From a virus (Duplodnaviria > Heunggongvirae > Uroviricota > Caudoviricetes): a stretch of 21,625 nt of DNA. Made by a program: the position numbers and the translations under genes. Of the stretch, positions 249-20,410 are shown piece after piece (positions within the stretch are counted from its first letter, which is position 1; every line of letters begins with the position of its first letter). Where the stretch lies: the IMG/VR virus record IMGVR_UViG_2563366928_000011; one strand, written 5' to 3'. The notes beneath the pieces were generated by a model. It was not told the DNA's origin, did not search any database, and saw only the letters and a program-made list of their open reading frames with translations.

Positions 249-536
249 TTACTGTCTCTGGCAATCTTTATCGCGATAACGCCTGAAGTACCCTCTCGCT
301 TCCTCATCCATACCAAGAGCCGAATGAGTCCGCTTAACTGCCTGTCTTAAATCTCCGAATCTGTCTGTAGTTGCTGGTGGGCGTGCCGCCTTACGGATAC
401 ATTCAGAGCGTCTGTTTGCTGCATGTTCACGTTCTTTATCGCCATCTGCCAGCATCATGACTTCTGCCCATCGTGCGGCAGCTCTCCGGTATAGCCCTTT
501 TGACTCCAGCTCTTCAGCTTTCCTGTCCTTTATCAT
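249..536 (-). CDS. PerC-family (Pch-like) transcriptional regulator, putative
   Basis: 95-aa ORF. The N-terminal segment EELESKGLYRRAAARW resembles the conserved core of PerC/Pch prophage-borne regulators (from memory, not searched). ATG at 536 is preceded by GAGG and a TATAAT-like box. Confidence 0.55.
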   Translation of the reverse strand: MIKDRKAEELESKGLYRRAAARWAEVMMLADGDKEREHAANRRSECIRKAARPPATTDRFGDLRQAVKRTHSALGMDEEARGYFRRYRDKDCQRQ

Positions 537-1256: not shown

Positions 1257-2279
1257 TCAATCGCTCCCTTTCCGCCCTTCAGCTACAGGGTCGTTGTCGG
1301 CGATAACAAAACCTAAGTCCTGAGAGAATCTCTCTCGTGGGAATCCTTTAGCAGGTAAACCCATTGAATCATATCCACATCCGGGAACATTTGGTTTAGA
1401 GTCAATAAGGTCTGCAATTTGCCGAAGCCATGTTGATCCCGGACCAAGTCGTTTAACTAAGTACCAGATAATACAGATCGCGCTAAAAATCCTCTCGCAA
1501 CTCTCTGGATGGAGATTAAGTCCGTCAAAGTATTCATTATCCGGTACTGGAACTCGGGGATGCTTTCTATTCCATATTCTGGAATGGTGAGCGCAACGAT
1601 TCCTTATGAGATTAAGGCACTTCAACCATTTTGCAAATGTCTGCTTATTATCAATGCCAAAACGACGTATAATTTTCCCCTGCATATGACCATTAAGCAT
1701 CGCATAATATTTAGACATCTGACCAAAATCCCAGGTCTCCACCGCCACCCAAAATGGAATCTCCTTGCCTTGGCTTCGATGCCATTCAATACAGTCATCT
1801 CTGCTTTCGTCTAATTTTACTTTTTGCTTATACACCCAATGCTCGAAGGCAGATGAGAATTTTGGATTAATGTATTTTGATGACATGTAGGCAAGTGGAT
1901 CATTGCGACCAACCTCATGCGCGATGACTGAACGAACATGAATCTCTATTCTTTCGATAGCATCAATCATCAAAAGACGCAGTTTTTTGTCAAAAAGATA
2001 TAGATCGTACGTCTTCTCGAAACTGGTACCAGTAAGAAATCGGTCTGTTCTGTACGAAAGACCTTTATCTGTTGTCGCAATAATTCTTGATGGGTACCAA
2101 AAACCTGACAATCGATAATATCCAACCTGCGACAGCTTACGTATCGCACGATTTCGATCATTGATAATCATGCCACGTTCAAGTAGCAATCCTAGCAATT
2201 CGTGATAGTCCTTATGAGGCTTTGCGGCAATCATAGTGGCGAAACAAAAGATAATAAAAGGCCCGACCGTGAAACTCAC
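1257..2279 (-). CDS. Abi_2 family (AbiD/AbiF-like) abortive infection protein
   Basis: 340-aa ORF. N-terminal LLERGMIINDRNRAIRKLSQVGYYRLSGFWYP matches the characteristic Abi_2 N-terminal motif. Start uncertain: GTG at 2279 or ATG at 2234. Confidence 0.7.
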   Translation of the reverse strand: MSFTVGPFIIFCFATMIAAKPHKDYHELLGLLLERGMIINDRNRAIRKLSQVGYYRLSGFWYPSRIIATTDKGLSYRTDRFLTGTSFEKTYDLYLFDKKLRLLMIDAIERIEIHVRSVIAHEVGRNDPLAYMSSKYINPKFSSAFEHWVYKQKVKLDESRDDCIEWHRSQGKEIPFWVAVETWDFGQMSKYYAMLNGHMQGKIIRRFGIDNKQTFAKWLKCLNLIRNRCAHHSRIWNRKHPRVPVPDNEYFDGLNLHPESCERIFSAICIIWYLVKRLGPGSTWLRQIADLIDSKPNVPGCGYDSMGLPAKGFPRERFSQDLGFVIADNDPVAEGRKGSD

Positions 2280-2610
2280 ATGCCTGAAATCGGCGGCGGA
2301 GAAACAGAGGATCGGGCTCGGTTGCCTGTAACTCTATCCGAAGTTATCCACATGTCAATGCACAGTTACTTAGGAAACTAACATAGGTACTATCATCACT
2401 CACGAAAAACCACTATATGTGGTTTTTATTCATATCGTTATCCACTACAGGCTGTGTCAATAACTTTTACCTATTAATTGGGTAATTTCTACATTTTCCT
2501 ATGCTGTCTAGTTTCTCTACTGAAAAGTTGGCACTCCTTAATCGCTTTTCGGTTAATACTATCGGTCTTCATATTGCCAGCAGCATACGCCATCCGATAA
2601 TTTCGATGCT

Positions 2611-2995
2611 ACGCGCGCGTACTTGTCGCAAAATATCAGGCAAAGGCCAGATTCAGAACGTCGTGATAACCACCAGCACAACATGAGATGTCATGTAACA
2701 CGATTTATCACATCAGATACATGTGATTGGTGTACCCGCATAAAACATCGTCATAGCGCGTCCTGTGCGCATATACGCCGATAATCAACACATCACCACC
2801 ACTCTGTCTCGTGTAGAGAACAGTTTCATGGTATCCCCCGCCATCGTGTGCGTACTGGTCGGACGTAGTTGCAAAAATTTTGCAACTGATACCCCTCGCG
2901 CGCGTACTGGTCACGAAATTGGTGTTTTGCTGTGGCAGTGATATCAGAAAAATCTTCCTGTTTCACATAAAGCGGATATGCGCGTACTGTAACGG
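2611..2995. repeat. Four dispersed copies of a GCGTACT(G/T)GTC motif in a noncoding stretch
   Basis: Read directly: GCGCGTACTTGTCG about 2615-2628; GTGCGTACTGGTCGG about 2848-2862; GCGCGTACTGGTCACG about 2898-2913; TGCGCGTACTGTAACGG about 2979-2995. Lies in the ORF-poor 2280-3126 interval. Confidence 0.35.
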
Positions 2996-3126
2996 CCCCA
3001 TCAACTGGGAGCGGATTTGAGCCCCGAATGTGTAGGCAATGTCACTTAACGTTTGTCGCATACCTTCCAGAAAAAGCGATTCATGAATAATAGGGGCATG
3101 AATGCCCGGCGTACCGGGCTTATTAG

Positions 3127-3825
3127 TTAATTTGGTGCTTTAGGGTCAACATTAAAAGTTATATCACCTTCTGTATTTTTCCCGGCATAGCTAGCGGCTA
3201 TTCTCGCCAACCCTTTGTAATCAGCAATTCCATCAGACTGTTGCGAGACGACTGAGCTACCAACTTTCCATAACATATTAATCTGCCGATTATTGAGATA
3301 AGCCTTGGCATCAAACGACTGGAGTATCACCCCTGCGCCGTAGAACGTGTCCGTCACAGTTGTGTTATACGCGCCAGTAATTCCATAAGTAGGCGTATAA
3401 ACTGTTGTTGCCGTTCCAGTGGTATTAGCTGTACCGTAGCCACCACCATAACTATTGAACGTGGTGTTAGAGTTTCCGTACGTTGTTGCTGAGCTCACAC
3501 CAGTTTGCCCGTATATTGGGATGGTTACATTACGAGTATTTGAAATGGCCCCGCTTCTCAAAAAGTTCAAGAGAATTACCTGGTCAGCCAATTTTTCATC
3601 TTTAACTTGTGTATATCCTTGGCTTGATAAACTGGCGGCTACTACCGTAGCTATTTGAGTGTATTCAATCTGTTTGGTGTTCCAAAGTTCTTGGCTTGCG
3701 GGGATGATCAAGAACTTCTTACCGACAGATTGCCCGGAAGATAAAGCATTGACCGTTACTAACGGTTTTTGTACGCATCCAGCCAATAATGACAGGGATA
3801 ATATTAAAAGAAGATTTTTAATCAT
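3127..3825 (-). CDS. Lipoprotein with Thr/Gly/Tyr-rich repetitive region (function unknown)
   Basis: 232-aa ORF. Signal peptide with lipobox MIKNLLLILSLSLLAGC. GGTGA RBS upstream of ATG at 3825. Central low-complexity T/G/Y/N-rich tract. Confidence 0.65.
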   Translation of the reverse strand: MIKNLLLILSLSLLAGCVQKPLVTVNALSSGQSVGKKFLIIPASQELWNTKQIEYTQIATVVAASLSSQGYTQVKDEKLADQVILLNFLRSGAISNTRNVTIPIYGQTGVSSATTYGNSNTTFNSYGGGYGTANTTGTATTVYTPTYGITGAYNTTVTDTFYGAGVILQSFDAKAYLNNRQINMLWKVGSSVVSQQSDGIADYKGLARIAASYAGKNTEGDITFNVDPKAPN

Positions 3826-3975
3826 GATAATCTCACCTAAGAATTGCGTGGTTATAAATTATCATCACTGTAAGCGAATGTAAGCCACAGGCTCGTAATG
3901 TGATATGGAATTTTGATAGTTGGCTCAATATCAGTATGCCGTCCTTGGCTATTATGGTTTTGTTAGTTAGAGCGT

Positions 3976-6702
3976 CTATTCCCATTCGCTAACATCTTTC
4001 ATGCCACTGAGGGTAGCTACAATCCCGGCCCTTGTCAGTTTCACGAATTCTTCAGCCCCAACGGCATCACGAATTGCTTTCATGGCAATTTTATTGGCCG
4101 AAAATCGTTTCTCTGCTGCGGCGATCGCTGCTGGTGATGCCCCTGCGCGCACTGCTTTTGTAGCTTCCTGAACGGCTTTCTCTATCGCATATCGACCACT
4201 TCTTGTCGCCCCAATCTTAGCCACAGCATTTCTTAGCGCGCCACCAGCAACCAAACCACTTATCGAACCAATTACACCACCGCCAAAGCCTCCAGCGATC
4301 GCACCTGACTGTTGAACTCCGTTCATAATCACGCCGACGATCTTTGGAAGGCCTGAATCGAGCGTTTTGAGAGCCTCAGTTGTTCTTCCCGTGCGCTCTA
4401 CGTATCGCTGCGGTCTGGTACTGGCTTTAGCGAGTACACCGAACTCTTTCATCATTCTACCGAGATCTGGCGCATGACGACTGATGGCGTTTACATTCTG
4501 CTGGGTCATGAGCTTGGCAAAATACTGGATACCTGACTCTTCACCGATTCCTCCCTTCTCTCCCTGCGCCACAGCATGCTGAAGAATAGATGCTATTGCA
4601 GGTTGGCGTTCTGCTTCCGGCAGCGCGGAGATAAGACGGTGAAAAGCTCCCGTTCCAGTGTTTGCGGATGCCTTAAGCGTATCGGCACCTTTTCTTACCA
4701 TAGCGTCTGATGCGAGATCTCGACCAAAAACAGATTCGGCATTTTGTTTGGCGATAATGTAACTTTTAGAGAGATCGTTAGCTTTCTGCCATTCTGTGAG
4801 GAAGTTTCCTTTTTCAGCCATGATGCGCATGTCATCAGTGATAGCTCTGCGCATTTCTCCGGCAATCCGGGCGGCATTGGCCTTACCTGCCCGGGTGTTT
4901 GCTTGTTCAGCATCAGCAAACTTAGTACGCCATGCCTTCATCCCGTCGAAGGTTATGCCGCCACCTTGGTTGTTGGCAGCCTGAAACTGTTTCATCTCCG
5001 GGCTGAGTGGAACATTGGCTGCTTTTTCTGCTTGGACGACAGCCATCCCATTACTCATTTTCATCCTTTCGCGTGGCATCGTGCTTCGCAGTTCTGCCCA
5101 TGCCATATTCTCTGCTGTTTTCATATCACTGAGGCTCGCGATGATGCGCTCTTTAATTGCTGCGCTTTTTTCTGATGCGCTTCCAGACTCAGCACCGAAA
5201 TCAGACAACTGCTTATTCAACTTTGAGGATATTTCATTGAAGGCCGTAAGGTGAGCATCCTGAACATTCCCAGGAGTTGATGCCAGAACACCTTCTGCTT
5301 GGGCAATTCCACGACTACCTGAGCGCATTCCAGGCGTCAGGGTGTTGATATTAATACCAGTGATTTTCGCCGCCTTAGCGACATCATCTCTGACGTTTGA
5401 TGCCTGCGATGCGATATGCTCTCGGCCTACGGCAGAACGCGCTGCTTTCGATACATCATTGGCGGTTTCCAGAGTATTTGCTGCCCCTAACACATGGCCT
5501 GATTGATTTGTATTACTCCGCAATACATCTCGCATTACGTCACTGGCTGTCTGTCCGCTCTTTATTAAAGCGCGTGCTCCTAGCGATCCTGCTAGGCCAA
5601 TACCTGTCTCTTTTGCTAGGTCTTCTGGGCTGATCTGCCCGTTCTTTTGGGCGTTCACCAATGTACCTGGCAGGTTTTCTGCCAACATACTAGCCACCTT
5701 TGTGGCCGCACGTTCAGCACGTGGAGCGTTGGCAACTGAAGAAGCTGCGGTAGCTGCCTTTCCTGCACCTAATCCTGTAATAAGGTAAGGTGCTAGCTGC
5801 TCACCAGCCTGCGCGTATGGATCTGTAGGTTGGTCTACTGGGCGAAAGACAGGTGATATGGGCGTGTATGTGCCATCACCCACACCAAGCTTCTGAGCTG
5901 CCCATGCTCCGGCTGATTGCGCCGCATTGACTACCCCCACGCCTGCGTCCATTACATCAAACGGTATATTAGCAATCCCTCTGGCCATCTGCTCTGGCGC
6001 AGCTTTCAGTCCTGGCGAAAGATATTCCATCTCAGGATTAAGGTTAGACTTGGCTACTTGCTGCTGCGGTTCCCCGGCATTTTCATCGGCGAGAAACTGA
6101 GCTCTTTTCTGCTCCCATGAACTGGCTGTTGGTAGTCCTGCTTCTATGTTCTTAAATTGCTGACGTTTTGCTTCCCATGCAGAAATATCTCCCACCTGAG
6201 AGATTTCTTTATCAAGCTCTGAGTAGTCAGGCTGCTGAAGATTGCGATGTTGACTGGTTTGTGCAAACTGCAAGATTTCACTGTCATCAGGGATTATTCC
6301 GGCATCTGCAAATTTACTTACGTAATTAGCCGTTTCATCTGGCAGTGTAGATTTACCGTTTCTGACGGCATTAATACGAGCATAGCCAGAATTATACCCA
6401 GCCAATGCCATACCTATATCACCAAATCGCTTCATTCCTTTATTGAGATGGTTTGCTGCGATATCCATTTGCTTTTCAAATGGCAGTGAGCGCGGATCTG
6501 TTCCACGATAACCAGCATCACTCATTACTGAGGGCATCAGTTGAGCAAATCCTCTAGCTCCTTTCGGTGACTCGGCACTTCCGTTACCACTAGATTCATT
6601 GCCAACTAATGTTTCCATCGTCCCTGATGGGAAACCATATTTTTCATCGAGATGACGGGAATAGGCTTTCTGTTTTTCTGTCAGTTGTGCCATCATTGCC
6701 AT
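3976..6702 (-). CDS. Large virion/ejection-type protein with N-terminal SLT lytic transglycosylase domain
   Basis: 908-aa ORF. N-terminus carries SLT-like motifs (GNESSGNGSAE..GARGFAQLMPS and ALAGYNSGYARI). Long Ala/Gly/Gln-rich helical remainder. Last gene of a four-gene cassette; start overlaps the stop of the upstream gene. Confidence 0.75.
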   Translation of the reverse strand: MAMMAQLTEKQKAYSRHLDEKYGFPSGTMETLVGNESSGNGSAESPKGARGFAQLMPSVMSDAGYRGTDPRSLPFEKQMDIAANHLNKGMKRFGDIGMALAGYNSGYARINAVRNGKSTLPDETANYVSKFADAGIIPDDSEILQFAQTSQHRNLQQPDYSELDKEISQVGDISAWEAKRQQFKNIEAGLPTASSWEQKRAQFLADENAGEPQQQVAKSNLNPEMEYLSPGLKAAPEQMARGIANIPFDVMDAGVGVVNAAQSAGAWAAQKLGVGDGTYTPISPVFRPVDQPTDPYAQAGEQLAPYLITGLGAGKAATAASSVANAPRAERAATKVASMLAENLPGTLVNAQKNGQISPEDLAKETGIGLAGSLGARALIKSGQTASDVMRDVLRSNTNQSGHVLGAANTLETANDVSKAARSAVGREHIASQASNVRDDVAKAAKITGININTLTPGMRSGSRGIAQAEGVLASTPGNVQDAHLTAFNEISSKLNKQLSDFGAESGSASEKSAAIKERIIASLSDMKTAENMAWAELRSTMPRERMKMSNGMAVVQAEKAANVPLSPEMKQFQAANNQGGGITFDGMKAWRTKFADAEQANTRAGKANAARIAGEMRRAITDDMRIMAEKGNFLTEWQKANDLSKSYIIAKQNAESVFGRDLASDAMVRKGADTLKASANTGTGAFHRLISALPEAERQPAIASILQHAVAQGEKGGIGEESGIQYFAKLMTQQNVNAISRHAPDLGRMMKEFGVLAKASTRPQRYVERTGRTTEALKTLDSGLPKIVGVIMNGVQQSGAIAGGFGGGVIGSISGLVAGGALRNAVAKIGATRSGRYAIEKAVQEATKAVRAGASPAAIAAAEKRFSANKIAMKAIRDAVGAEEFVKLTRAGIVATLSGMKDVSEWE

Positions 6703-8012
6703 CCCTTAAGTTTTGCCTGATAGTAACTTTCCGGCAGATAGCCATGTGCGGTCACATAATCCTTAACCAGTGAAGGATCCTGCAACAGCATTTTGGTATC
6801 AGTTTCTTCGTCCTTAGATTTGGTTACAGGAATACCGAGCCCGGCAATCTGTCGTTTCTGCATTCGAATAATTACGTCCTGCGCTTTATTCAACTCTCGC
6901 AAAAATGCCTCATTGCTGGTTGCTGACTTAATGCCATTTTGAGATTGCATAAGGGCAGCCCTTTCCCCTTCGGTTGGGTTAGAGCCAAAAGTCCCTTTGA
7001 GGCTAGGCAGAATAACCTTTAGGTTGTATTCATCAGCTTTGGCGCGTAGGCTTCGTGTGTCTTCTGCTACATCAGGAAGGAATCCAAACCCCAGCGTCAG
7101 GGGGTTATAGTTCTGCGAGCGGGTAACGGCCGAAGGATGTTTCCCTACAATTCCCGCCAGTTCATGACCCACTTCAAGCGCAGAGTTCAAGGAGTCGATG
7201 TTACCTGCAACAGTATTAATTTTATCGTTCATCTTCTCCACTTTCGCCTGCTGTACCTTGCTCAGTTCAGCATTGAGCTTGTCTCTCTCGATGTCATTTT
7301 GAGCACGTCCAAGTCGTGCTTTCAGAACCATTTCTCTCGTGCGTAGTTGGTTATCGGATAGGACTTTGAACTGCTCCATATCGAGACGTCGATTACCCTG
7401 TTCCGCATTAACCTGAGCATTATATGCGGATGTATCTGCGTTCTGCTGTGCAATGCTCTGCCCTTGCTGCTTCTCTTGAACACTAAAGTAACTATTTGGA
7501 TCAGCATGGAGGTGGATGAGGTCAGTGATTCTGTTGAATTCCTGTGGGTCATTCTGCCAAGACTGATAAACCTCTTCAGCAGGAAGACCAAATCGCTGTA
7601 ATACTGGATTTGCCTGCTGAATGGCCTTCTGCATGATCAGTGGATCTCCAGTTTGTGACGCAAGACGCAGATTCATGGCAGCGTCAGCGGTCTGTCGATT
7701 TTGCTCAGCATCAATGAATCCCATCTGTTTTTGAGAATCAGCCATAAACTGGGGATACTGGGCCATTAACTTCTGCACGCCAACACGATCATTATTAGCT
7801 ACCGCACTACCCAACCGTGCCTGATATTCTTTTAACTGCTGGGAAATTTGCGCCTGCTGATTAATCTCAGCAACGCCTCTTAGCCCCTGTAGCGCCATTA
7901 AACCTACGTTTGGCTGCTGCTGATACTGCACAGGCTGAGGAACGGAAGAACGAGGAGCATTATCATTTTGCGGTGCCATGCTAGGCAGCCCGCCAAGTTG
8001 CCATGTCGCCAT
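6693..8012 (-). CDS. Ejection/DNA-transfer-type protein, putative (P22 gp20-like by size and position)
   Basis: 439-aa ORF. Q/A/N-rich, predicted coiled-coil character. Tightly packed between the 225-aa and 908-aa genes. Assignment rests on architecture, not on a search. Confidence 0.6.
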   Translation of the reverse strand: MATWQLGGLPSMAPQNDNAPRSSVPQPVQYQQQPNVGLMALQGLRGVAEINQQAQISQQLKEYQARLGSAVANNDRVGVQKLMAQYPQFMADSQKQMGFIDAEQNRQTADAAMNLRLASQTGDPLIMQKAIQQANPVLQRFGLPAEEVYQSWQNDPQEFNRITDLIHLHADPNSYFSVQEKQQGQSIAQQNADTSAYNAQVNAEQGNRRLDMEQFKVLSDNQLRTREMVLKARLGRAQNDIERDKLNAELSKVQQAKVEKMNDKINTVAGNIDSLNSALEVGHELAGIVGKHPSAVTRSQNYNPLTLGFGFLPDVAEDTRSLRAKADEYNLKVILPSLKGTFGSNPTEGERAALMQSQNGIKSATSNEAFLRELNKAQDVIIRMQKRQIAGLGIPVTKSKDEETDTKMLLQDPSLVKDYVTAHGYLPESYYQAKLKGWQ

Positions 8013-8689
8013 TAGAATCCAAGCCCCCCAACAAGACCAATAAGCCCACCACCAATAGCGCCGGCCGCAGTTCCTATTCCAGGAACAACGGAACCAAGTT
8101 GCGCACCCGCTAAAGCGCCTGATGCTGCCCCACCAATACCACGCGCAAGACTGGATGGCTGCTGCGCCTGACCTGCACGAATAGCGCCAAGCCCCTGCAA
8201 GAGTTGTCCGGTATTATTGGCGTAGTTTTGCCCTGCCGTTGCCTGCCCTGATGCCGCATTCATCCCGACATTTAGCAGGTTTCCATAATTTTGCATTTGC
8301 CCACTGAGCCAATTGTTATAAAGCATGGGCGCAATGGAAGATAACTGGTTACTGGTAGCTGTTGAGCCAAGCCCCCCGGTAGCTTCTGCTGAGACAAGGT
8401 TCTGATAACGGGCCTGATCTGCCTGTGTTTTATATAAACCAGAACCAAAGAAATCATTCGCGGCTTTATTCTGCCCTTCCAGAGTCATCAGTCCTTGCAG
8501 TTGTTGTAAAGCAGGCAATCCGACTTCTGCATACGGCTTGAGATTATTCATCACCGTATTCCACTGCTCGCGCTGCAAATCAATTGCCTGCTGCTGGGCC
8601 TTCGCCTGAGCTTTAGAGGCACCACCATCACCGCCTTTTTCGTATACGGCACGATTGAGATGTTTATGAGCTATATGGGTAATTAACAT
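8012..8689 (-). CDS. Ejection/DNA-transfer-type protein, putative (P22 gp7-like by size and position)
   Basis: 225-aa ORF. Gly/Ala-rich with hydrophobic Gly-zipper C-terminus (GGLIGLVGGLGF). ATG at 8689 overlaps the upstream stop as ATGTTAA. Confidence 0.55.
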   Translation of the reverse strand: MLITHIAHKHLNRAVYEKGGDGGASKAQAKAQQQAIDLQREQWNTVMNNLKPYAEVGLPALQQLQGLMTLEGQNKAANDFFGSGLYKTQADQARYQNLVSAEATGGLGSTATSNQLSSIAPMLYNNWLSGQMQNYGNLLNVGMNAASGQATAGQNYANNTGQLLQGLGAIRAGQAQQPSSLARGIGGAASGALAGAQLGSVVPGIGTAAGAIGGGLIGLVGGLGF

Positions 8690-9144
8690 TCGCTGAATTC
8701 CTTATATTGTTGCCGAGTTAACTGATAAAGCGTTACGCCGACGGGTTTACCACATCTGATATAAGCATCATCAAGGTGACCAACACGGGTAGCGCCAAGC
8801 AAACGGATAATTGCCCGTCCATATTTTGTGGTGTCAGGAACCATAGTGATGCTGTTAAGGAATGGTGAGTTTTCGAGAAGCCACTTGCAGAATAATCGAT
8901 GCCCTTGCAGTGCATATTCACCACGGAATCCGGGGTCGTACACCGCATGGCATTCAACAACGCTATGCCAGAAGTTACGCACTTCATGAACGCCAGCCAG
9001 CACTAATCCTTCGTAGATGCCGAGATATACCGCATCAGGCTTGATGTAGTACGTGTGCCCCGGCTCAACAATATTTTCGGTATTGCCTGGCTCGTTAAGA
9101 AAGGCCTGTAATCGCACAGGGTTATCAATAAATTTTAGTTCCAT
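8683..9144 (-). CDS. Hypothetical protein, first large gene of the ejection-like cassette (gp14-like position)
   Basis: 153-aa ORF with protein-like composition, 16 nt downstream of the small RHH-like ORF. No motif recognised. Confidence 0.55.
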   Translation of the reverse strand: MELKFIDNPVRLQAFLNEPGNTENIVEPGHTYYIKPDAVYLGIYEGLVLAGVHEVRNFWHSVVECHAVYDPGFRGEYALQGHRLFCKWLLENSPFLNSITMVPDTTKYGRAIIRLLGATRVGHLDDAYIRCGKPVGVTLYQLTRQQYKEFSEC

Positions 9145-9160
9145 GCGATGCCATCCATTT

Positions 9161-9322
9161 TCACATACAGCCTGCCAGCGCCTTATCTATTAACCCTCGT
9201 GCAATTTCATGCAGAGTTGGCGCTACTCCAATTCCTGATTTTTTACGCTGCTCTTCCTGAATTTTCTTTATCGCTTCCATTTGCTTCTCACTTATCAATA
9301 CCGGCTTTACTGAAATAGCCAT
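9161..9322 (-). CDS. Small RHH-like putative regulator (53 aa, below ORF-track cutoff)
   Basis: Own translation of the minus strand: MAISVKPVLISEKQMEAIKKIQEEQRKKSGIGVAPTLHEIARGLIDKALAGCM. ATG 9322-9320, TGA 9163-9161. AAGGGGG RBS 5 nt upstream. Strand-helix-helix pattern. Confidence 0.4.
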   Translation of the reverse strand: MAISVKPVLISEKQMEAIKKIQEEQRKKSGIGVAPTLHEIARGLIDKALAGCM

Positions 9323-9335
9323 AACGCCCCCTTAG

Positions 9336-9355
9336 AACTGTATAAAACAACAGTT
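9336..9355. promoter_or_regulatory. Palindrome AACTGT-N8-ACAGTT immediately upstream of the small RHH ORF
   Basis: Read directly: AACTGT 9336-9341 and ACAGTT 9350-9355. Candidate operator for autoregulation. Confidence 0.3.
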
Positions 9356-9417
9356 ATTATAGTTTCACAAATCGCAATATTCATCATTGTAATTGCAAAA
9401 TATGAAACAAATAGCAC

Positions 9418-9449
9418 AAAAAAATGCCACCGCTCAGTAGCTGGTGGCA
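9418..9449 (-). terminator. Intrinsic terminator for the leftward satellite operon
   Basis: On the minus strand: 7-bp stem TGCCACC/GGTGGCA with 11-nt loop followed by TTTTTTT (plus-strand A-run 9418-9424, hairpin 9425-9449). Confidence 0.5.
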
Positions 9450-9815
9450 TCGTTCTGTATGTCAGGTTTTGACAGGTTTTTTATGGACTCTAAAAACTAT
9501 ATTTATGGTGTCGCATTACTCTTCACGGCAGGTGCTTTTCAGTTCTGCCCTTGCTTCTGGCTCCATTGGTAATTTGATTCGCGATCAGCTATGCGGATGG
9601 TTTGCTGAACAGGCATAACAACATCTCAGAGGCTATTTTTTGAACTACGAAAATTTCGTAGGTCTCTCCTTCAAAAACGTCACGCCCTTGTACACTGGAT
9701 TTTACAAAAGTCTCGTAAAACTCTTTGCTGTTCTGGGCTACGTGCCAAACCGCAGCGAATACCTCCGTCTGCCAGATGAGCAAAACATACCTTATAAAGA
9801 AAATCGCTGTTTTTG

Positions 9816-9920
9816 CTGTACCACCTGTACCACCATGTCACAAACCCTTGTGTGGCGCGGCCTGCAGGTGGTACAGGTGGGTAAAAATGACCTCTCCCCA
9901 CCTGTACAGACCTGTACCAT
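9816..9920. repeat. Iteron cluster A (CTGTACCACC / GGTGGTACAGG motifs incl. 14-bp perfect inverted repeat)
   Basis: CCACCTGTACCACC at 9821-9834 and its exact reverse complement GGTGGTACAGGTGG at 9867-9880. Further copies at 9816-9825, 9898-9908 and 9911-9919. Confidence 0.55.
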
Positions 9921-9924
9921 TTAT

Positions 9925-10662
9925 TTAATTTTTACTCATAGCAGCACATAATCCCTTTTTTGAAATATTGAAAAATGCGTTCATTCTTCCCGCTGGCTTA
10001 ACCTTGTAGCCGCTTGCCACCATCGCCGCAATAAATGCTCCGTTGGGGATATAGTGCGGGTGATCACTGTGCTGGTGGTTTATCTGGTTATATCGCTCCA
10101 CTTCATGCTTCAACGTGTCAGATGTGGGGTTATCCTGCGGGAAGCTCTCAATCTGGGCATTACTCATCCCGTTGTCTCTGATCCATCTCAGGCAGCTTTT
10201 CGCCGATACGATAAATGACGGGTTATCAAGCGGTTTTTCCCAGTCCGCATTCCGGTTGTGGAGCGCCAGTCCGTCAAGGTTAAATTGTGGGTATTCAGCG
10301 GTAATTACTGTCACTGCGTGGCGGATTTCAGTCTCGTCACAACATGGCTCATCTCCCACACCAGCAGGGTAATAATCTGAACCACCGGGACTGATACAGC
10401 GTTTACCACTGAAAGGCCATTGCTTCGCCATTTCGGGTGTTGAGTGATTACCGTCGCTCCGTTCGCGCTGTGCCTCTGTCCACTGGCTGGCATATTCAGT
10501 AAATGAAACCCTTTGCCCCTGACGCATCCAGTGCGCAATCATAATTAAAGTGCGTTCCAGACTTTGGATGTCGCCAGCATTCCCGCACTGTGTAGCGAAA
10601 CTTTTTAATTCTTCGCGCTCCGTTCTGGTCATTCCCTGCGGTATGCAATAGTTATTGCTCAT
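9925..10662 (-). CDS. Hypothetical protein (245 aa), cargo gene downstream of primase
   Basis: ORF with Cys/His/Trp-containing, protein-like composition. Start ATG at 10662 overlaps the stop of the 76-aa ORF. No family recognised. Confidence 0.55.
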   Translation of the reverse strand: MSNNYCIPQGMTRTEREELKSFATQCGNAGDIQSLERTLIMIAHWMRQGQRVSFTEYASQWTEAQRERSDGNHSTPEMAKQWPFSGKRCISPGGSDYYPAGVGDEPCCDETEIRHAVTVITAEYPQFNLDGLALHNRNADWEKPLDNPSFIVSAKSCLRWIRDNGMSNAQIESFPQDNPTSDTLKHEVERYNQINHQHSDHPHYIPNGAFIAAMVASGYKVKPAGRMNAFFNISKKGLCAAMSKN

Positions 10663-10882
10663 GTTTTACCTCTCTGATTTCTGCTGCCATATCTGTTGGC
10701 TCTATACAGCCGTCCCGACTTGCCACGCAGGGAATAATGATTTCAACGGTATCGCCGTCAATACACATTTCAACATTCGCCCATGCCGCAATGGGTAGCC
10801 AGTCTGAACGCCCCTCAAACCGTAGCTGCCAGCCAGAGGAAGAAGCTAACTGGCGCACTTTGTAAAATGGTGTGCTCATCAT
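10652..10882 (-). CDS. Hypothetical small protein (76 aa)
   Basis: ORF translationally coupled to the 245-aa gene. Lies immediately downstream of iteron cluster B. Confidence 0.45.
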   Translation of the reverse strand: MMSTPFYKVRQLASSSGWQLRFEGRSDWLPIAAWANVEMCIDGDTVEIIIPCVASRDGCIEPTDMAAEIREVKHEQ

Positions 10883-10926
10883 TGGTTGTTCCCTCTCAGC
10901 CAGCCAGAAGAAATGCGTTTGTTAAT

Positions 10927-11029
10927 GGTATAGGTGGTACAGGTCTGGTATAGGTAAGATATTGACCTGTACCACTATAACACATTGTTTTTAATGATGA
11001 ATTAGCAAAGTGGTATAGGTGGTACAGGT
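10927..11029. repeat. Iteron cluster B (two direct copies of GGTATAGGTGGTACAGGT plus partial and inverted copies)
   Basis: GGTATAGGTGGTACAGGT at 10927-10944 and 11012-11029. Partial GGTATAGGT at 10947-10955. Inverted CCTGTACCAC at 10966-10975. Shares the 13-mer AGGTGGTACAGGT with cluster A. Confidence 0.55.
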
Positions 11030-11058
11030 AAAAACGATCTTCTTGTAAAAAGACTATA

Positions 11059-13413
11059 TTAAAAAACATCATAACCCCCCATACCGATCAGACGGGCAAA
11101 CGCAGCCTGTAGAACTCCGACCTCTGGTAGTTCGTAGAACACGCCATTCCCTCGGTCTGGTCTTCCATGCTTCACCAGCCCCATTTGTGCAAGTGATTTA
11201 CCCAGTAGTGATCTGGCAGCTGGTTCTTTAAGCTTTTCCCCACGCTCAAGCGACCACGCTACAAACCGACTAACCATATCCTTTGCAAACAAACGGACTT
11301 CGCCATTAAACGGAGGTTCATTGATTAGCTCGCCATAAAGAAACAATTCAACGCCAGACAGCCCCAGCAAGATTTCTTCACGTAAGGCATCGGTCTGTGG
11401 CGCTCGTTGAGGGTCAAAACCTGAGAGATCCACCCCTTTAAGATGCCAAAGCAACTTTGCGGCACCGCCATCATTAAGCCAACTGTACAGCCGATCAAAA
11501 TACTCCCGGCTCTGTGCTTTTTCAGGAGATGGCTCAAGCACGAGATAGCGACGCTCTCTTATCCCTGCCTGTAATACCTGTGTGCTGTTACTGGCAAATA
11601 TCAACCGGGCAAAATTCGGCATTGGTTCAGCATCAATTCCCTTGCGCTCAAGGTTAAACGTCGGTTCGCTAATAATCGCTTTAAGTCTGTCAGCTTCAGA
11701 CGGCTTGTGGATCGTCACTTCGTCAGCAAATACCAGTAGCTTGTTAGCAAGTATTGAATTGAAGCGCCCTGAAATATGTCCCGCCCCGTTAATGTGGGCG
11801 GCGTACTGCCCCAGTATTTGCAGCAGCGGTTTAACCGTTGTGCCTTTCCCTGTGCCCGGGACAGATTTCATCACGATTGCCACGGACGGTTTTTCATCAG
11901 GCTTTTGGATAATGTGCGCCATCCACTGGATAAGATATTGGTATGCCTCTTCATTACCGGCACAGACAACCTGCAACAGGTGATTAAGGTATACCGTGCA
12001 ATCTCCTTCAATTGGTTCCAGTGCCAGCCCCTCATACAGATTAAAAACATCGTCAGGGCATTTGTCTGGTACTGGATAAAATCCTACGCCTCCTGGCTTG
12101 TAGTTCTTCCCACTCCATGACAGCCACGCCGATCCCGCCAGCTTTCTGGCGACTCTCGGTTTATGATGAAAATAATGCTGAAATTGTGATAAATCCTCGA
12201 AAACGTGCGATACACCGCCGGTTTGAGAAGGCTTTAGCGACACCACCTTGTGTTTCCCGCCGATGGTGACATGCGTAAACGTCCGGTTGATTTCTTCGAG
12301 GACAGCAATTTCATCATCGCTTAACACCTCGCCAGAACTGATCTCATTCAGCGCCCCGACTGACTGTTTGTGATTTTTCACCTGCGCCCCTTTCCCCCGT
12401 GGCTGGTACATCGAATCTTTAAATGCTGCTGTGGCTGCCGCCAGCCCGTGTTGTTGGTGATAGTCGTTCCAGTCGGCTTTATAGTCAGTCGGTGGCAGAG
12501 ACACCCTGCCAGCTACGGAAATAGCGGCCCTCTCTGCGGCATCTTTCCCCGTGTTGATCCCTCCACTTTCTGAGTCTCCTTGCTGGTGATCGTTATCTGC
12601 GGCAATGATGATTTGTGCCTGCGGATATGTTCTGCGCATGACTTCCGCTACTGGCAACAGGTTGCCAGCGTCGATTGCTGCCACTGTCATTGCGTCAGGG
12701 CGAATTAAATGGCACGACAGGGCGGTAGCCACCCCCTCAGCAATTATGATGCTGTGAGGTCGTTTCTGTGCGTTTATGGCGTGATATGCCCCCCGCTTTG
12801 CCGAACCTGTCAGGAGTCTTTTTTCACCATGTGAGGTAATAGTCTGTGCTGCTGTGACTGCGCCGGATTTATCCACCAGCGCCAGCAACAGAGATCCATC
12901 GGGCAACACGGGGAATGTAAAATCACCTACCCCTTTCGCAACCAGATAATCAGATTTGCCGTTTACAGCCTTTCTGCGCATGTCATCAAACTGACGGGAA
13001 AACGTATCCCGTCTTTGTTGTTCGTCCTTCTCTGCCCTTTTCAGGCGCTCCTGTTCGCGTCGCTGGCGCTCGGTTTCCAGTTGTTCCCGTTTCTGGCTGG
13101 TGGCTTCTGGTGTTTCCGTTGTCCGGTAATCAATACCCAGAACATCAGCGGCAAGAAGCGCCGCCTCTGTTGTGTCGCAGTTATTTACGCGTTTAATTAA
13201 ATCCAGCCCATCACCAGCGCCGCACTGATTACAGATGAAGCTACCGCGCCCGTTGTCATCGAACCGGAATCGATCTTTTCCCCCACATGCAGGGCAGGGA
13301 GCATGACGGCGCGGAGAGTCAGGGACATTTATGTTCAGGCAGCCCAGCACATGAGGCCAGTTGTTTTCAGACGCACTGATAACCTGACGGATAAGATCAA
13401 TGTTTCGCATCAC
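11059..13413 (-). CDS. P4-family primase-helicase (zinc-binding + TOPRIM + P-loop NTPase)
   Basis: 784-aa ORF. Zn-ribbon CPACGGKDRFRFDD..FICNQCG. TOPRIM signature IIIAEGVATALS and AADND. Walker A VPGTGKGT in the C-terminal half. Likely start is ATG at 13410 after a GGGG RBS. Confidence 0.9.
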   Translation of the reverse strand: MMRNIDLIRQVISASENNWPHVLGCLNINVPDSPRRHAPCPACGGKDRFRFDDNGRGSFICNQCGAGDGLDLIKRVNNCDTTEAALLAADVLGIDYRTTETPEATSQKREQLETERQRREQERLKRAEKDEQQRRDTFSRQFDDMRRKAVNGKSDYLVAKGVGDFTFPVLPDGSLLLALVDKSGAVTAAQTITSHGEKRLLTGSAKRGAYHAINAQKRPHSIIIAEGVATALSCHLIRPDAMTVAAIDAGNLLPVAEVMRRTYPQAQIIIAADNDHQQGDSESGGINTGKDAAERAAISVAGRVSLPPTDYKADWNDYHQQHGLAAATAAFKDSMYQPRGKGAQVKNHKQSVGALNEISSGEVLSDDEIAVLEEINRTFTHVTIGGKHKVVSLKPSQTGGVSHVFEDLSQFQHYFHHKPRVARKLAGSAWLSWSGKNYKPGGVGFYPVPDKCPDDVFNLYEGLALEPIEGDCTVYLNHLLQVVCAGNEEAYQYLIQWMAHIIQKPDEKPSVAIVMKSVPGTGKGTTVKPLLQILGQYAAHINGAGHISGRFNSILANKLLVFADEVTIHKPSEADRLKAIISEPTFNLERKGIDAEPMPNFARLIFASNSTQVLQAGIRERRYLVLEPSPEKAQSREYFDRLYSWLNDGGAAKLLWHLKGVDLSGFDPQRAPQTDALREEILLGLSGVELFLYGELINEPPFNGEVRLFAKDMVSRFVAWSLERGEKLKEPAARSLLGKSLAQMGLVKHGRPDRGNGVFYELPEVGVLQAAFARLIGMGGYDVF

Positions 13414-15380: not shown

Positions 15381-16440
15381 TGGTTGCCCCCGTTTTTCCT
15401 GGCATTTCGCCACCTTCCAGCAGGAAATGAACGTCACGAACGGCGAGATCCAATATCGCGAGTAACGCCTTCAGTCTTTCGTCTCGTGAGGGAGAGTTGC
15501 TCACCAGAATGTCGTTAATCACTTCTGTCAGTGTGATGATCTGGCTTGTGCGTTCGAGGGGATCCATATGCACATCGTAGGTTTTAATCATGTGCCACCT
15601 CCATGCGGATACGACCAGCAAAAAAGCAGATGTGATCGCGCACCAGAGAACGGCGAGCATCGCGTTCAGACTCGGCAGCAATATGATGAATTTTGGCGGT
15701 AATTGTCGGGCAATCGCGGCGAACTGCGGCGATAATCCAGATAAATTGCGGTTTTTGGGTAGGGGTAGTAGCCAGCATGTGGCAGCCTCCATTCGATAGC
15801 ATGTAACGCTACCACCGGAAACGCCAATTTCGCTGGTGGTAGCCCAGACAGGGTTGGCGTAACCGGCTCGAATGGATACCGGCGCTTCCGAAGAAGCCCC
15901 TGCCTGAGCCACCATTGATTGACAAAGGCGCTGGATTATACACCAACGCCCAAAAAATGGGTGAGTCAGACCTACGACATAAAAAAAGACGCTCGGCGCG
16001 TCATATGTCGCCATTCGATTTACCAGGACGCCAATCCCGGCACCCGTTTTATGAGGTGCCTTATAACCATAAACCGTGTTGCCGCATAACGGCAAGCTCT
16101 TTTTTATGGACTCCGAAAACTCACTATTGGAAGAACCAGAAGCACAGTACATCGCGCTCATTTCGTTAACGTCACGCGCGTGGACGAATGTTTTTGTGGA
16201 GTCACTACACGAGCGGAAGACATCATCTACGACCAGAAATTTTCTGGCGCAGCCGCTGACCTTCTCAAGGCTAATATCATCGCCCGAGATTTCTGGTATG
16301 GTTAAGGCATCCGTTCCGACCACCAGCAAATGATAAACTTTGCTTGTATCTGCTGTATTAATGCCTGACTTTGCCGTCATATTTCTGGATTTTGGCGACA
16401 TGCCAGCCAGTGAAAATGTCTTCTTCTGGACGGGTATCAT
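15373..16440 (-). CDS. Hypothetical protein; long ORF of uncertain internal structure
   Basis: ATG at 16440 with GGAGG RBS and ATGA overlap with the upstream stop. First ~170 residues look protein-like. Residues ~170-283 are W/C/S-rich (junk-like). Last 72 aa are again protein-like with their own GGAGG RBS (ATG 15591). Confidence 0.4.
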
Positions 16441-17454: not shown

Positions 17455-17886
17455 TTAGGCGGCGTTAAACGCGTCCGGGTAGAGTTTCAGAATGTCGGCA
17501 ATTTCCTGCTGAGAAAGTCCGTTGTGATCATTTATGTTCGCAAGATGGTTAATATGAGTGATCACTTTCAGAACATCACCACGGCAGGAGAAACGGTAGC
17601 GAAGGTGTGTTCCGATACCATCAGGATTCTTTTCGTCGATACGCTCCAGAGTGATTCCAAGCTGGCGTTCTAACTCTGTTGCATAGTTACGACCAGAAGA
17701 CAGACGGCAGTAGCGAAGAATGTCATTTTCTGTCCATCCCTCTATACCAGTACGCAGCATATAGACTCTGGCACGATGCTTTTTCGGTGTGCGCTTTGGT
17801 GCTTGAAGGGATTTTGTAAGGGGCGTAACATCAGATACACGAATATCTGAATTAGCCGCCTGTAATGGGCGGTTTTTCTTTTCCAT
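17455..17886 (-). CDS. Hypothetical protein (143 aa), basic N-terminus
   Basis: ATG at 17886 overlaps the AlpA stop (TGATG). GAGGTGG RBS. Confidence 0.55.
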   Translation of the reverse strand: MEKKNRPLQAANSDIRVSDVTPLTKSLQAPKRTPKKHRARVYMLRTGIEGWTENDILRYCRLSSGRNYATELERQLGITLERIDEKNPDGIGTHLRYRFSCRGDVLKVITHINHLANINDHNGLSQQEIADILKLYPDAFNAA

Positions 17887-18089
17887 CAGGCCACCTCGTC
17901 TCTAGATTCTAATATACACTTCTCAATCCATTCATCTATTTCAGACTCAACAAAAGCAATTGCCCGACTTCCAATTTTTACCTGTTTAGGGAACCTCCCC
18001 TGACTAATAAGACGATAAATCCATGCTTTGCTATAACCAGTTCGCCTTTGAACTTCAGAGAGACGAATTAATGAATTGTAATTAGCCAT
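17886..18089 (-). CDS. alpA: AlpA-family transcriptional regulator / excisionase-like
   Basis: 67-aa ORF. IRLSEVQRRTGYSKAWIYRLISQGRFPKQVKIGSRAIAFVESEIDEWI is the classic AlpA/phage-excisionase HTH pattern. First gene of the leftward operon. Confidence 0.8.
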   Translation of the reverse strand: MANYNSLIRLSEVQRRTGYSKAWIYRLISQGRFPKQVKIGSRAIAFVESEIDEWIEKCILESRDEVA

Positions 18090-18376: not shown

Positions 18377-18607
18377 GTAGAAGGCTCAATACACCTTCGT
18401 TTATAAAAGAGCGATTGCCCTTCTCCAGGGCTAACTGTTAAATAGCAATCCTCTGTGAGTTTTTATCAATCTACTCCCCTATACTTTAGTAAACCTCTGT
18501 ATACTTGTGGGTCTTCCCCTGTTGTGGTGGGTGGTACATAATTGAGTGATTTTCAAACACCACACAGTACCTTTATGGTGTCTCTTTTTACATGAGAGGG
18601 AATTCTT

Positions 18608-19126
18608 ATGAGTGTGCCGCAAACAAAAGCTGAACTGCTTTTAGCTATTGATAAAAATTTTAGTAAATTAATTAGTTACCTCAACACAATCCCACCAGAA
18701 ATTACTTCAGATAAATCAATGGACGGACACGCCAAAGGAACGGAGATGAGTGTTCGTGATCTCGTTTCGTATCTGCTTGGATGGAATGCTCTTGTTGTAA
18801 AGTGGATCGCTTCTGATGCTAAAGGTCTGCCTGTCGATTTTCCGGAAACTGGCTATAAATGGAATCAGCTTGGCCTTCTTGCTCAAAAATTTTACTCAGA
18901 TTACAGTGAGTTAAGTTATGAGTTGTTAGTAGCTGAACTTCAGACTGTAAAAAATGAGATTGTGAACCTTATTAATGATCGTACCGATGATATTTTGTAT
19001 GGAAGACCATGGTACACAAAATGGACGATGGGGAGAATGATCTCATTTAACACATCTTCGCCTTACGCCAACGCTAATGGAAGATTAAGAAAGTGGGCAA
19101 AAAATAATAATATCAGTTTAAAGTAA
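18608..19126 (+). CDS. ClbS/DfsB-family (DUF1706) four-helix-bundle protein
   Basis: 172-aa ORF. Matches remembered ClbS-type motifs (GHAKGT..SV.DLVSYL.GW, WN.LG.LAQKFY, GRPWYTKWT.GRMI.FNT.SPY). Lower GC than surroundings. Confidence 0.7.
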   Translation: MSVPQTKAELLLAIDKNFSKLISYLNTIPPEITSDKSMDGHAKGTEMSVRDLVSYLLGWNALVVKWIASDAKGLPVDFPETGYKWNQLGLLAQKFYSDYSELSYELLVAELQTVKNEIVNLINDRTDDILYGRPWYTKWTMGRMISFNTSSPYANANGRLRKWAKNNNISLK

Positions 19127-19144
19127 GCTTCAGAATGAAATTAT

Positions 19145-20365: not shown

Positions 20366-20410
20366 GTCTTCCCACCATGATCGGGGAAGACCCATACTTG
20401 TCCAGTTGTT

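Follow-up and report, generated by a model that had tools for sequence, protein, structure and literature searches.

The window analyzed here, a stretch of 21,625 nucleotides from IMG/VR virus record IMGVR_UViG_2563366928_000011 (Caudoviricetes), contains at 3976-9322 of its minus strand a five-gene cassette that includes homologues of the P22 genes gp14, gp7, gp20 and gp16. By its gene content and sequence, the window is a variant of EcCIMP1, a phage-inducible chromosomal island (PICI) and thus a satellite of P22-like podophages. We consider it rather probable that the cassette is a late module of the EcCIMP1 family, similar to operon I of the staphylococcal pathogenicity islands (SaPIs), and that it provides an SOS-induced ejectosome supplied by the satellite and loaded into the capsids of the helper phage; that the products enter particles and that the island benefits from them is what we infer from the comparisons described below.

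The ejection cassette and its conservation

The cassette is led by orf53 (53 amino acids (aa); 9161-9322, minus strand, from the open reading frame (ORF) call), which is the leader gene of the operon and is followed after a gap of 16 nt by the homologues of gp14 (153 aa; 8683-9144), gp7 (225 aa; 8012-8689) and gp20 (439 aa; 6693-8012), the last being the ejection protein of the periplasmic conduit, and by a fusion of a lytic transglycosylase (SLT) domain with gp16 (SLT::gp16, 908 aa; 3976-6702). All are on the minus strand, and the reading frames of gp14, gp7, gp20 and gp16 overlap or abut. In the NCBI annotation (PGAP), SLT::gp16 starts 2 codons later, which gives 906 aa. A preliminary description of the window, made from its letters alone, had placed four consecutive minus-strand genes of 153, 225, 439 and 908 aa at exactly these coordinates and had compared them with the P22 module, regarding only the first three as good matches. 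Our results showed that all four matched by size and order as well as by family.

The 153-aa protein matched Pfam DUF2824, the family of P22 gp14 (E=1.5e-61), and phrog_651, the 225-aa protein matched P22_gp7 over profile positions 19-229 of 230 (E=6.6e-73) and phrog_598, and the 439-aa protein matched Inj_translocase, the gp20 family (E=9.4e-22), together with phrog_917 and phrog_2534. In the 908-aa protein, residues 17-119 (nt 6346-6654, minus strand) matched Pfam SLT with E=1.1e-12 and 48 bits, the cut-off being 21.3 bits, and residues 189-864 (nt 4111-6138, minus strand) formed a gp16-type DNA-transfer domain matching phrog_770, “DNA transfer protein” (E=2e-121); homologues of SLT::gp16 carried precomputed PF26808 (Phage_P22_gp16) and PF01464 assignments. 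The PHROGs labels were head morphogenesis for gp14, DNA ejection for gp7 and “released from the phage upon host infection” for gp20. A sequence search of all four cassette proteins against PDB chains gave no match. Since all four proteins were matched by family profiles, the similarity to phage ejection proteins that the preliminary description had wanted examined was found for each of them, and on this evidence the genes are true homologues of the P22 module, forming a complete set in the P22 order. In P22, gp14, gp7, gp20 and gp16 have 151, 229, 471 and 609 aa and are followed by sieA (PMC4837284).

The N-terminal SLT motif that had been noticed in the 908-aa protein was borne out not only by the profile match but also by its signature residues, as E36-S37, Q54, Y103 and G106 were invariant among 15 SLT::gp16 proteins. 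In phage T7, gp16 has an N-terminal lytic transglycosylase domain that cleaves peptidoglycan locally (PMC8954989). SLT::gp16 is similar to it in having an SLT domain at the N-terminus of an inner-membrane ejection protein, with the catalytic Glu near residue 36-37, but no sequence relationship was detectable beyond the SLT domain, the remainder being a P22-type gp16. The C-terminus of the 225-aa gp7 homologue, as read from the sequence, was hydrophobic and rich in glycine, in agreement with the Gly-zipper, membrane-like end proposed earlier.

The gp14 homologue was the most conserved component, with 72-85% identity across Enterobacterales. Its AlphaFold2 model had a pLDDT of 92, and a Foldseek search with this model found SpeG and other GNATs (E=1.6e-9, TM 0.75-0.79). 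The GNAT acetyltransferase fold of gp14, known in P22 as the “head assembly protein”, is therefore confidently predicted by the model; the fold hints at modification of clients rather than mere chaperoning and suggests an enzymatic role in the maturation of the ejection proteins.

Neither Pfam nor PHROGs detected a capsid, portal, terminase, tail or lysis family in the window, and none was present in the PGAP annotation of the island of Escherichia coli AF14 (NZ_OZ546925.1), which was 100% identical to the window except for a 1.9-kb insertion and 1 nt in gp20; the earlier remark that no morphogenesis genes were recognized upstream thus held. The neighbors of a P22-type virion operon (portal, coat, gp4, gp10, gp26 and tailspike) were likewise found in neither the window nor the identical island. 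Since these genes are absent around it, the cassette is, as far as gene content tells, homologous to a phage module and yet outside any phage. The resemblance to the P22-like module (14, 7, 20, 16, then sieA) extends to the four families, their order, and the overlapping or abutting frames, and SLT::gp16 fusions are likewise known from genuine P22-like prophages of Serratia, Tatumella and E. coli and from the phages Dewey and Huey. Unlike the phage module, the cassette does not lie between the tail-needle and tailspike genes but resides in a satellite, behind orf53 and an SOS-type promoter of its own, and is distant from sequenced phage isolates, the highest identities in a set of 50,697 sequenced phage genomes being 52% for gp16 and 28.5% for gp20.

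The conservation and dN/dS comparison called for by the preliminary description showed an intact cassette. The 5,347-bp region was of equal length in ten E. coli copies (those of the window, of strain MP1 and of eight sampled genomes), each of the five genes had its terminal stop only, no pseudogene was flagged, and the polymorphic codons comprised 42 with only synonymous changes versus 20 with amino-acid changes. The cassette was intact in 10 of 11 E. coli copies, the exception being the AF14-type copy, in which a 1-nt indel in gp20 (AF14 locus L001, 22718-24038), annotated as frameshifted, represents either a real inactivation or an assembly error. Among copies from Escherichia, Citrobacter, Leclercia and metagenomes, pairwise dN/dS was 0.04-0.14 for the four genes and 0.02-0.03 for orf53, the set including pairs with unsaturated dS (0.06-0.6). 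The cassette is under strong purifying selection. A true prophage stump looks different: in O157:H7 EDL933, the remnant adjoining intS and tRNA-Arg (L041, 9100-11916) lacked gp16 and consisted of a truncated gp20, gp7, gp14 and a pseudogene of the tail needle, and DUF2824 fragments like those of EDL933 were present in several other sampled O157:H7 genomes.

The EcCIMP1 family and its exchanged alleles

EcCIMP1 is a 19,963-bp PICI found at the same site in E. coli MP1 by Pick, Stadel and Raivio (ISME J 2025; PMC11773190). Its excision and circularization occur only with the temperate podophage vB_EcoP_Kapi1 and require its own int and alpA, AlpA is the master activator, and Kapi1 transduces the island (PMC11773190). 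Kapi1 is a Lederbergvirus, that is, P22-like, with a 14-7-20-16 module of its own. The region 2547-9724 of the window was 98.7% identical to EcCIMP1 at the DNA level, the cassette proteins had 98-99.6% aa identity, and orf53 and the lipoprotein encoded after gp16 were 100% identical. Both islands occupy the tRNA-Thr site between proA and yagU, where the AF14 island lies between tRNA-Thr/proA and yagU, and they have int, alpA, a PM1773-like gene, antA/B, DUF4222, ash and small ORFs in common. With an integrase at its end, an AlpA regulator, its own primase, a length of about 20 kb, and no structural, terminase or lysis families, the window has the properties of a PICI. The term “orphan” used for the cassette in the preliminary description is thus misleading, as the cassette belongs to a known and named family of elements.

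The two islands differ in four respects. The C-terminal half of the window primase is DUF5906, while that of EcCIMP1 is DUF927; the window has additional ORFs of 245, 76 and 58 aa; the accessory end contains AbiD and a 146-aa ORF in the window but alpA_1 and a pRiA4b-like gene in EcCIMP1; and the window has a 1.9-kb ISL3/DUF1706 insertion. The region 9725-12388, including the primase half and extra ORFs, could not be aligned to EcCIMP1, which indicates that the replication module was exchanged between the sister islands. The dependence of excision, replication and transfer on a helper is taken from EcCIMP1 with Kapi1 (PMC11773190), the window variant having a different primase domain and an insertion sequence (IS) between alpA and int. 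In the EcCIMP1 paper, the cassette genes were treated as hypothetical candidates for packaging, under “DNA transfer/DUF2824”, and “ejection” is not mentioned (PMC11773190).

Copies with 78-89% protein identity were found in Citrobacter freundii, C. portucalensis, Leclercia adecarboxylata, and metagenome and IMG/VR contigs. For copies of at least 78% identity, a PICI backbone (int, AlpA, AntA, Ash, primase and SSB/ProQ/PerC) was present wherever the upstream sequence was readable, no structural genes were found, and an orf53 homologue always preceded the cassette. The backbones of these relatives were partly unlike that of the window, with a DUF927 primase, SSB, ProQ, a 329-aa ORF and sometimes PerC. 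The SLT::gp16 relatives of at most 57% identity that were examined were all in complete P22-like prophages (Serratia, Tatumella, E. coli and Arsenophonus) carrying portal, scaffold, coat, gp4, gp10, needle and tailspike genes, which shows that the fusion is an ordinary phage variant and that the satellite copies form a separate group. Identity to the proteins of Kapi1 was 84% for gp14 (against Kapi1_055), 58% for gp7, 26% for gp20 and 25% for gp16. A recent capture of the cassette from this helper was rejected, since only a stretch of ~400 bp in gp14 reached ~90% DNA identity and gp20 and gp16 were ~25% identical.

The distal genes of the cassette were found to be exchanged among islands. In islands from IMG/VR and from E. 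coli genomes that carry a second allele, B, the backbone was the same and orf53, gp14 and gp7 were 97-100% identical to those of the window, but gp20 (473 aa) was identical only over its first ~55 residues and then ~49% identical, which places a recombination breakpoint inside gp20, and gp16 was of an unrelated type (701 aa, phrog_770) with no SLT domain. The best identities of allele B to sequenced phages were 67% for gp16 and 53% for gp20. In allele C, found in E. coli strain 165 between yicC and dinD, orf53 was followed directly by gp20 (488 aa) and gp16 (701 aa), and in Serratia PICIs by gp20 (448 aa) and a third SLT::gp16 type (943 aa, 37-40% identical to that of the window), both arrangements lacking gp14 and gp7. 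The common denominator of the slot, retained across the alleles, is thus orf53 with a matched gp20/gp16 pair. An island of Klebsiella michiganensis (L052, 10001-12649) contained an orf53 homologue, a 605-aa phrog_7694 protein that resembles tape-measure proteins and tail-injection transglycosylases and, after it, a TerS-like protein of 168 aa. The orf53-gp14-gp7 segment was present at a coverage of at least 80% in 253 of 5,426 complete E. coli genomes (4.7%), and the gp20/SLT::gp16 allele of the window in 72 (1.3%); besides E. coli, the cassette slot was present in PICIs of Citrobacter, Leclercia and Serratia.

Directly after gp16, the window encodes a 232-aa lipoprotein with the lipobox LLAGC (3127-3825, minus strand), whose gene probably ends the operon or has a weak promoter of its own. 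It was 100% identical in EcCIMP1 and 93% and 88% identical in two further loci (L026 and L032, respectively), with a dN/dS of 0.04, and it had no family match in Pfam or PHROGs. In allele B, the slot after gp16 was occupied by a gene for a 204-aa multi-pass membrane protein (L037, 13546-14160, minus strand, in an IMG/VR E. coli island), lying on the strand opposite to the cassette and having a weak SieA-like match (phrog_7745, E=4.4e-4); judged by this match, it would be a superinfection-exclusion gene borne by the satellite. The arrangement parallels that of P22, in which sieA follows gene 16, and small lipoproteins were found in the same slot of P22-like prophages with SLT::gp16. The lipoprotein of the window is therefore a candidate superinfection-exclusion factor. 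EcCIMP1 raises the superinfection immunity of Kapi1 lysogens, none of the known defense systems having been detected in it (PMC11773190), and this immunity is more readily attributed to the lipoprotein or SieA-like gene of the slot than to the ejection proteins.

Promoter of the cassette and its proposed function

The cassette is preceded by a 600-bp spacer, which begins upstream with a cluster of GGTACAGGTGG repeats and whose control elements were compared in an alignment of 10 PICI variants. A conserved 22-nt motif, AGTTTTTAGAGTCCATAAAAAA (9477-9498, minus strand), which is duplicated in two relatives, lies upstream of a rho-independent terminator (9416-9441, minus strand; stem 9441-9426 followed by a T-run) that separates the ejection operon from the upstream primase operon. 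The stem sequence varied among the relatives, and the T-run was kept in all of them. A TATAAT -10 hexamer (9356-9361, minus strand) was invariant in all 10 variants, and no good -35 hexamer was found at 17-18 nt from it. Between the -10 hexamer and the ribosome-binding site lies the palindrome AACTGTTGTTTTATACAGTT (9336-9355, minus strand), whose core, CTGT-N8-ACAG (9338-9353), begins two bases past TATAAT. CTGT-N8-ACAG is the core of the LexA box of E. coli.

The core occurred as a single site in the window, and 14 of 15 related islands had it 29-31 nt ahead of the orf53 ATG, with one other such site across the 304 kb of the 15 island loci. The exception was the island of K. michiganensis, which is without ejection proteins and in which the core is degenerate. 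The boxes of the islands had 3-6 mismatches to the 20-nt LexA consensus, and a search of the window for this consensus with at most 3 mismatches gave no match. Because of its core motif, position and conservation, the palindrome is best read as a LexA/SOS box rather than as a private operator of orf53. A bidirectional terminator-like hairpin after the lipoprotein gene (3094-3119) closes the operon. Together, these elements would delimit a terminator-insulated operon, de-repressed by the SOS response, that comprises orf53, gp14, gp7, gp20, gp16 and possibly the lipoprotein gene.

The leader protein orf53 was 72-100% identical across genera in the alignment and had no Pfam match. Its AlphaFold2 model (pLDDT 79.5) consisted of an extended N-terminus and two helices, and the top matches of a fold search with it were complexes of TCP-domain transcription factors with DNA and the VapB12 antitoxin, none of them significant (E=3.5-8). 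The TCP-domain structures are similar to the ribbon-helix-helix (RHH) fold, and orf53 is possibly an RHH DNA-binding protein or co-regulator. Of the small RHH-like ORF with a palindromic operator of its own that had been described before, the ORF and the palindrome were thus upheld, with a conservation reflected in the dN/dS of orf53, whereas the private operator was not and the RHH assignment is suggestive.

The operon I of SaPIs is LexA-controlled (PMC5052747). Like it, the cassette lies downstream of the replication module, has an SOS-box-type element, and encodes proteins that act, as predicted for the cassette, on the production of helper particles. The two differ in that SaPIs encode TerS, CpmA/B and Pti while the cassette encodes ejection proteins, its LexA control being predicted.

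In the mechanism that we propose, DNA damage would cause cleavage of LexA and de-repress the dedicated promoter formed by the TATAAT hexamer and the SOS box, simultaneously with induction of the helper prophage. With orf53, gp14, gp7, gp20 and SLT::gp16 then produced, SOS control would time their synthesis to the assembly of procapsids, and the three ejection proteins would be co-assembled into procapsids built by the helper, possibly assisted by gp14 with its predicted GNAT fold. Upon ejection into the next cell, gp7 at the outer membrane, gp20 in the periplasm and gp16 at the inner membrane would form a trans-envelope conduit, the SLT domain would cut the peptidoglycan locally as in T7 gp16, and the satellite DNA would pass through. 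As the matched gp20 and gp16 are only ~25% identical to those of the helper, delivery would be independent of the helper ejectosome. The divergent pair would probably also evade exclusion of the SieA type, which targets gp20 and gp16, and such an escape would open cells with resident P22-like prophages, the best future hosts for the satellite.

Studies of P22 make such loading feasible. The ejection proteins of P22 are assembled into procapsids, leave the virion after adsorption and form the conduit for DNA entry. Leavitt et al. reported that whole foreign sets of these proteins, 22-26% identical to those of P22 in gp16 or 21-50% in gp20, were incorporated into P22 virions and were functional (PMC10461980), so that a satellite set could work in Kapi1-type capsids as well. 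Since gp16 and gp20 must be cognate, non-cognate combinations in P22/Sf6 hybrids being non-functional, and since gp16 and gp20 are the targets of prophage SieA, which different alleles or point mutants evade (PMC10461980), there would be a reason to carry a complete, matched and divergent set. A satellite with its own ejectosome had been among the possibilities raised in the preliminary description; it fits all the comparative evidence as well as the mobilization of EcCIMP1 by a P22-like podophage (PMC11773190), with incorporation into particles as its inferred part.

Several points weigh against a satellite-supplied ejectosome. The presence of the cassette proteins in particles is a prediction, as is the binding of LexA, and the SOS box found in E. 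coli departs from the 20-nt consensus at 6 positions. Kapi1 transduces EcCIMP1 only rarely, at ~4.8e3 particles per ml (PMC11773190), which means either that the cassette does not obviously boost transfer or that Kapi1 is not the natural helper, and a Kapi1-like prophage is present in only 2 of 21 EcCIMP1 strains (PMC11773190). No recognizable SieA was found in Kapi1, in which only small secreted proteins are encoded downstream of gp16, so the rationale of escaping exclusion is general and not specific to one known helper. In addition, one near-identical copy, that of the AF14 island, has the 1-nt frameshift in gp20, and dS was saturated for some of the between-genus pairs. A wider proposal, to which we give less credence than to the ejectosome itself and which we regard as conceivable rather than probable, is that satellites re-arm hijacked podovirus particles with their SOS-induced ejectosome, so that DNA delivery and sensitivity to SieA-type exclusion are set by the satellite, and that the swapping of gp20/gp16 together with the exclusion slot reflects a three-way arms race among satellites, P22-like prophages and exclusion systems.

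Among the alternatives, interference with the helper is unlikely but has the most in its favor. According to it, satellite proteins would compete for procapsids, and mixtures of non-cognate gp16 and gp20 would give helper virions unable to inject, in the manner of SaPI operon I. The cassette is indeed in the position of a packaging/interference operon and has SOS-type control like that of SaPI operon I, non-cognate gp16/gp20 were non-functional in the P22/Sf6 hybrids (PMC10461980), and its gp20 and gp16 share only ~25% identity with those of Kapi1. However, Kapi1 titers after induction were unchanged by EcCIMP1 (PMC11773190), poisoned particles would fail to deliver the satellite DNA too, and the conservation of a complete, matched gp7/gp20/gp16/gp14 set exceeds what a poison needs.

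Marginally less likely is a second alternative, suggested by the truncated P22-like remnants in several sampled O157:H7 genomes, of which the one examined, EDL933, was without gp16. Here the cassette would insure the helper range of the island by supplying ejection proteins in trans to defective or incompatible P22-like prophages, comparable to the replacement of the helper excisionase by EcCIMP1 alpA_1. Cross-complementation of Kapi1 xis by a PICI gene and the finding that most EcCIMP1 strains are without a Kapi1-like prophage (PMC11773190) are in line with it. The loss of ejection genes is, however, usually accompanied by the loss of capsid genes, as in EDL933, so that such a remnant could not package, and the idea overlaps with a satellite-supplied ejectosome rather than excluding it.

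We regard as improbable, to a slightly greater degree, a role in host defense, in which the cassette proteins in the resident cell, or the lipoprotein, would block the entry of P22-like phage DNA. It would agree with the increased superinfection immunity of Kapi1 lysogens carrying EcCIMP1, in which no known defense system was found (PMC11773190), and with the post-gp16 slot, occupied by a SieA-like gene in allele B and by a conserved lipoprotein here. But the ejection proteins have no signal peptides and are probably repressed by LexA in uninduced cells, the lipoprotein or SieA-like gene would account for the immunity more simply than gp7, gp20 and gp16 do, and the conservation of gp14 would be left unexplained.

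A tailocin-like, secretion-system-like or other envelope-breaching device, the co-opted form of which had been put forward in the preliminary description, was rejected, as neither secretion-system nor export domains were recognizable in the cassette genes and the context is that of a satellite. The remaining idea, also from the preliminary description, that the genes are the dead stump of a decayed P22-like prophage beside an island, is contradicted by the comparisons and very improbable indeed, because, despite their phage origin and the frameshifted gp20 of one near-identical copy, the reading frames are undisrupted in 10 of 11 copies with a dN/dS of 0.04-0.14, the cassette has clean boundaries with its own promoter and terminator, it takes the same position within different PICI backbones of four genera, its alleles are swapped but always complete, and the true stump of EDL933 has a truncated gp20, a needle pseudogene and no gp16.

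Known satellites have been described as stealing or resizing capsids, redirecting packaging or building their own heads. The cf-PICIs of Alqurainy et al. 2023 reportedly encode capsid, portal and connector proteins and borrow their tails. An EcCIMP1-type island would resemble them in encoding part of the particle but would differ in encoding internal ejection proteins only and borrowing everything else. In the literature searched, which yielded only unrelated or staphylococcal studies, no satellite was found to be described as supplying genome-injection proteins of its own, and the main text of the MP1 transcriptome paper does not name the EcCIMP1 genes responding to Kapi1. Since the family of elements has been published and PGAP already labels two of the cassette genes “phage DNA ejection protein”, the finding is not categorically new. 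What appears to be new, relative to the literature found, is the recognition of the module as a complete P22-type ejectosome set that is selected in satellites of multiple genera, far from that of the helper, allele-swapped, and located behind a predicted SOS-type promoter. The ejectosome module would be cargo of a kind new to satellites and possibly also a novel strategy of piracy.

If the proposal is true, this piracy would be distinct from capsid-size redirection, packaging redirection and capsid formation, and it would explain the “packaging module” of the EcCIMP1 family, which ~4.7% of complete E. coli genomes carry and which occurs in Citrobacter, Leclercia and Serratia as well. The ejection step would then be a target of conflict among satellites, helpers and host prophages, and the alleles would offer natural, interchangeable ejectosomes for studying the assembly of the P22-type conduit and its blockage by SieA. 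EcCIMP1 and Kapi1 are available as an existing genetic system. The consequences would extend to horizontal transfer, as AbiD, PerC-like regulators and further cargo travel with the islands and the cassette may determine the host range of the islands.

Other features of the island

The backbone of the island consists, in order, of integrase, AlpA, a PM1773-like gene, AntA/B, DUF4222, “ash”, small ORFs, the Zn-ribbon/Toprim primase, the cassette, the lipoprotein, AbiD and PerC, and has a length of ~20 kb without the IS insertion. The tyrosine integrase gene (20411-21625, minus strand; Pfam) marks the tRNA-Thr end, adjoining tRNA-Thr and proA in the AF14 island, and the window ends at its start codon. 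The att core of EcCIMP1, TCCTATTATC, was not found in the window because the window begins and ends within the island. The AlpA-family regulator is encoded at 17886-18089 (minus strand; Pfam Phage_AlpA, E=7.4e-20) and the PICI primase/helicase at 11059-13413 (minus strand; Zn_Ribbon_Prim, Toprim_3 and DUF5906 in Pfam, and phrog_2249).

Just downstream of the replication genes, the GGTACAGGTGG-type repeats form a cluster of direct and inverted copies (9816-9919, minus strand; repeat families D1, D2, I1 and I4-I6) with 14-nt perfectly complementary arms. By its position, the cluster is a candidate for the PICI replication origin or for regulatory iterons.

Two RNA genes were found at the Rfam gathering threshold, namely a C4 antisense RNA (15832-15919, minus strand, 79.5 bits) and isrK (15982-16059, minus strand, 67.1 bits), and these matches indicate an RNA immunity region of the P4/P1 type in the island. 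Both are inside a 355-aa ORF annotated as “ash family protein”, the same stretch being covered by Pfam Phage_ASH, and this long ORF may be, at least in part, translated RNA genes. Satellite P4 has an immunity region with a C4/CI-type antisense RNA. The island is similar to P4 in this region and in its integrase, alpA-like regulator and alpha-like Zn-ribbon/Toprim primase, but it is without sid, delta, psu and epsilon, and its helper is a podophage while that of P4 is a P2-like myophage.

At the accessory end of the island, an AbiD/Abi_2 abortive-infection gene (1257-2279, minus strand; PADLOC AbiD, E=6.9e-58) and a gene for a PerC-family regulator (249-536, minus strand) were found. The 1.9-kb ISL3/DUF1706 insertion (18509-20393), absent from the AF14 island, is located between alpA and int and consists of a DUF1706 gene (18608-19126, plus strand) and an ISL3-family transposase gene (19145-20365, plus strand). 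Its position may uncouple the integrase from the regulatory region.

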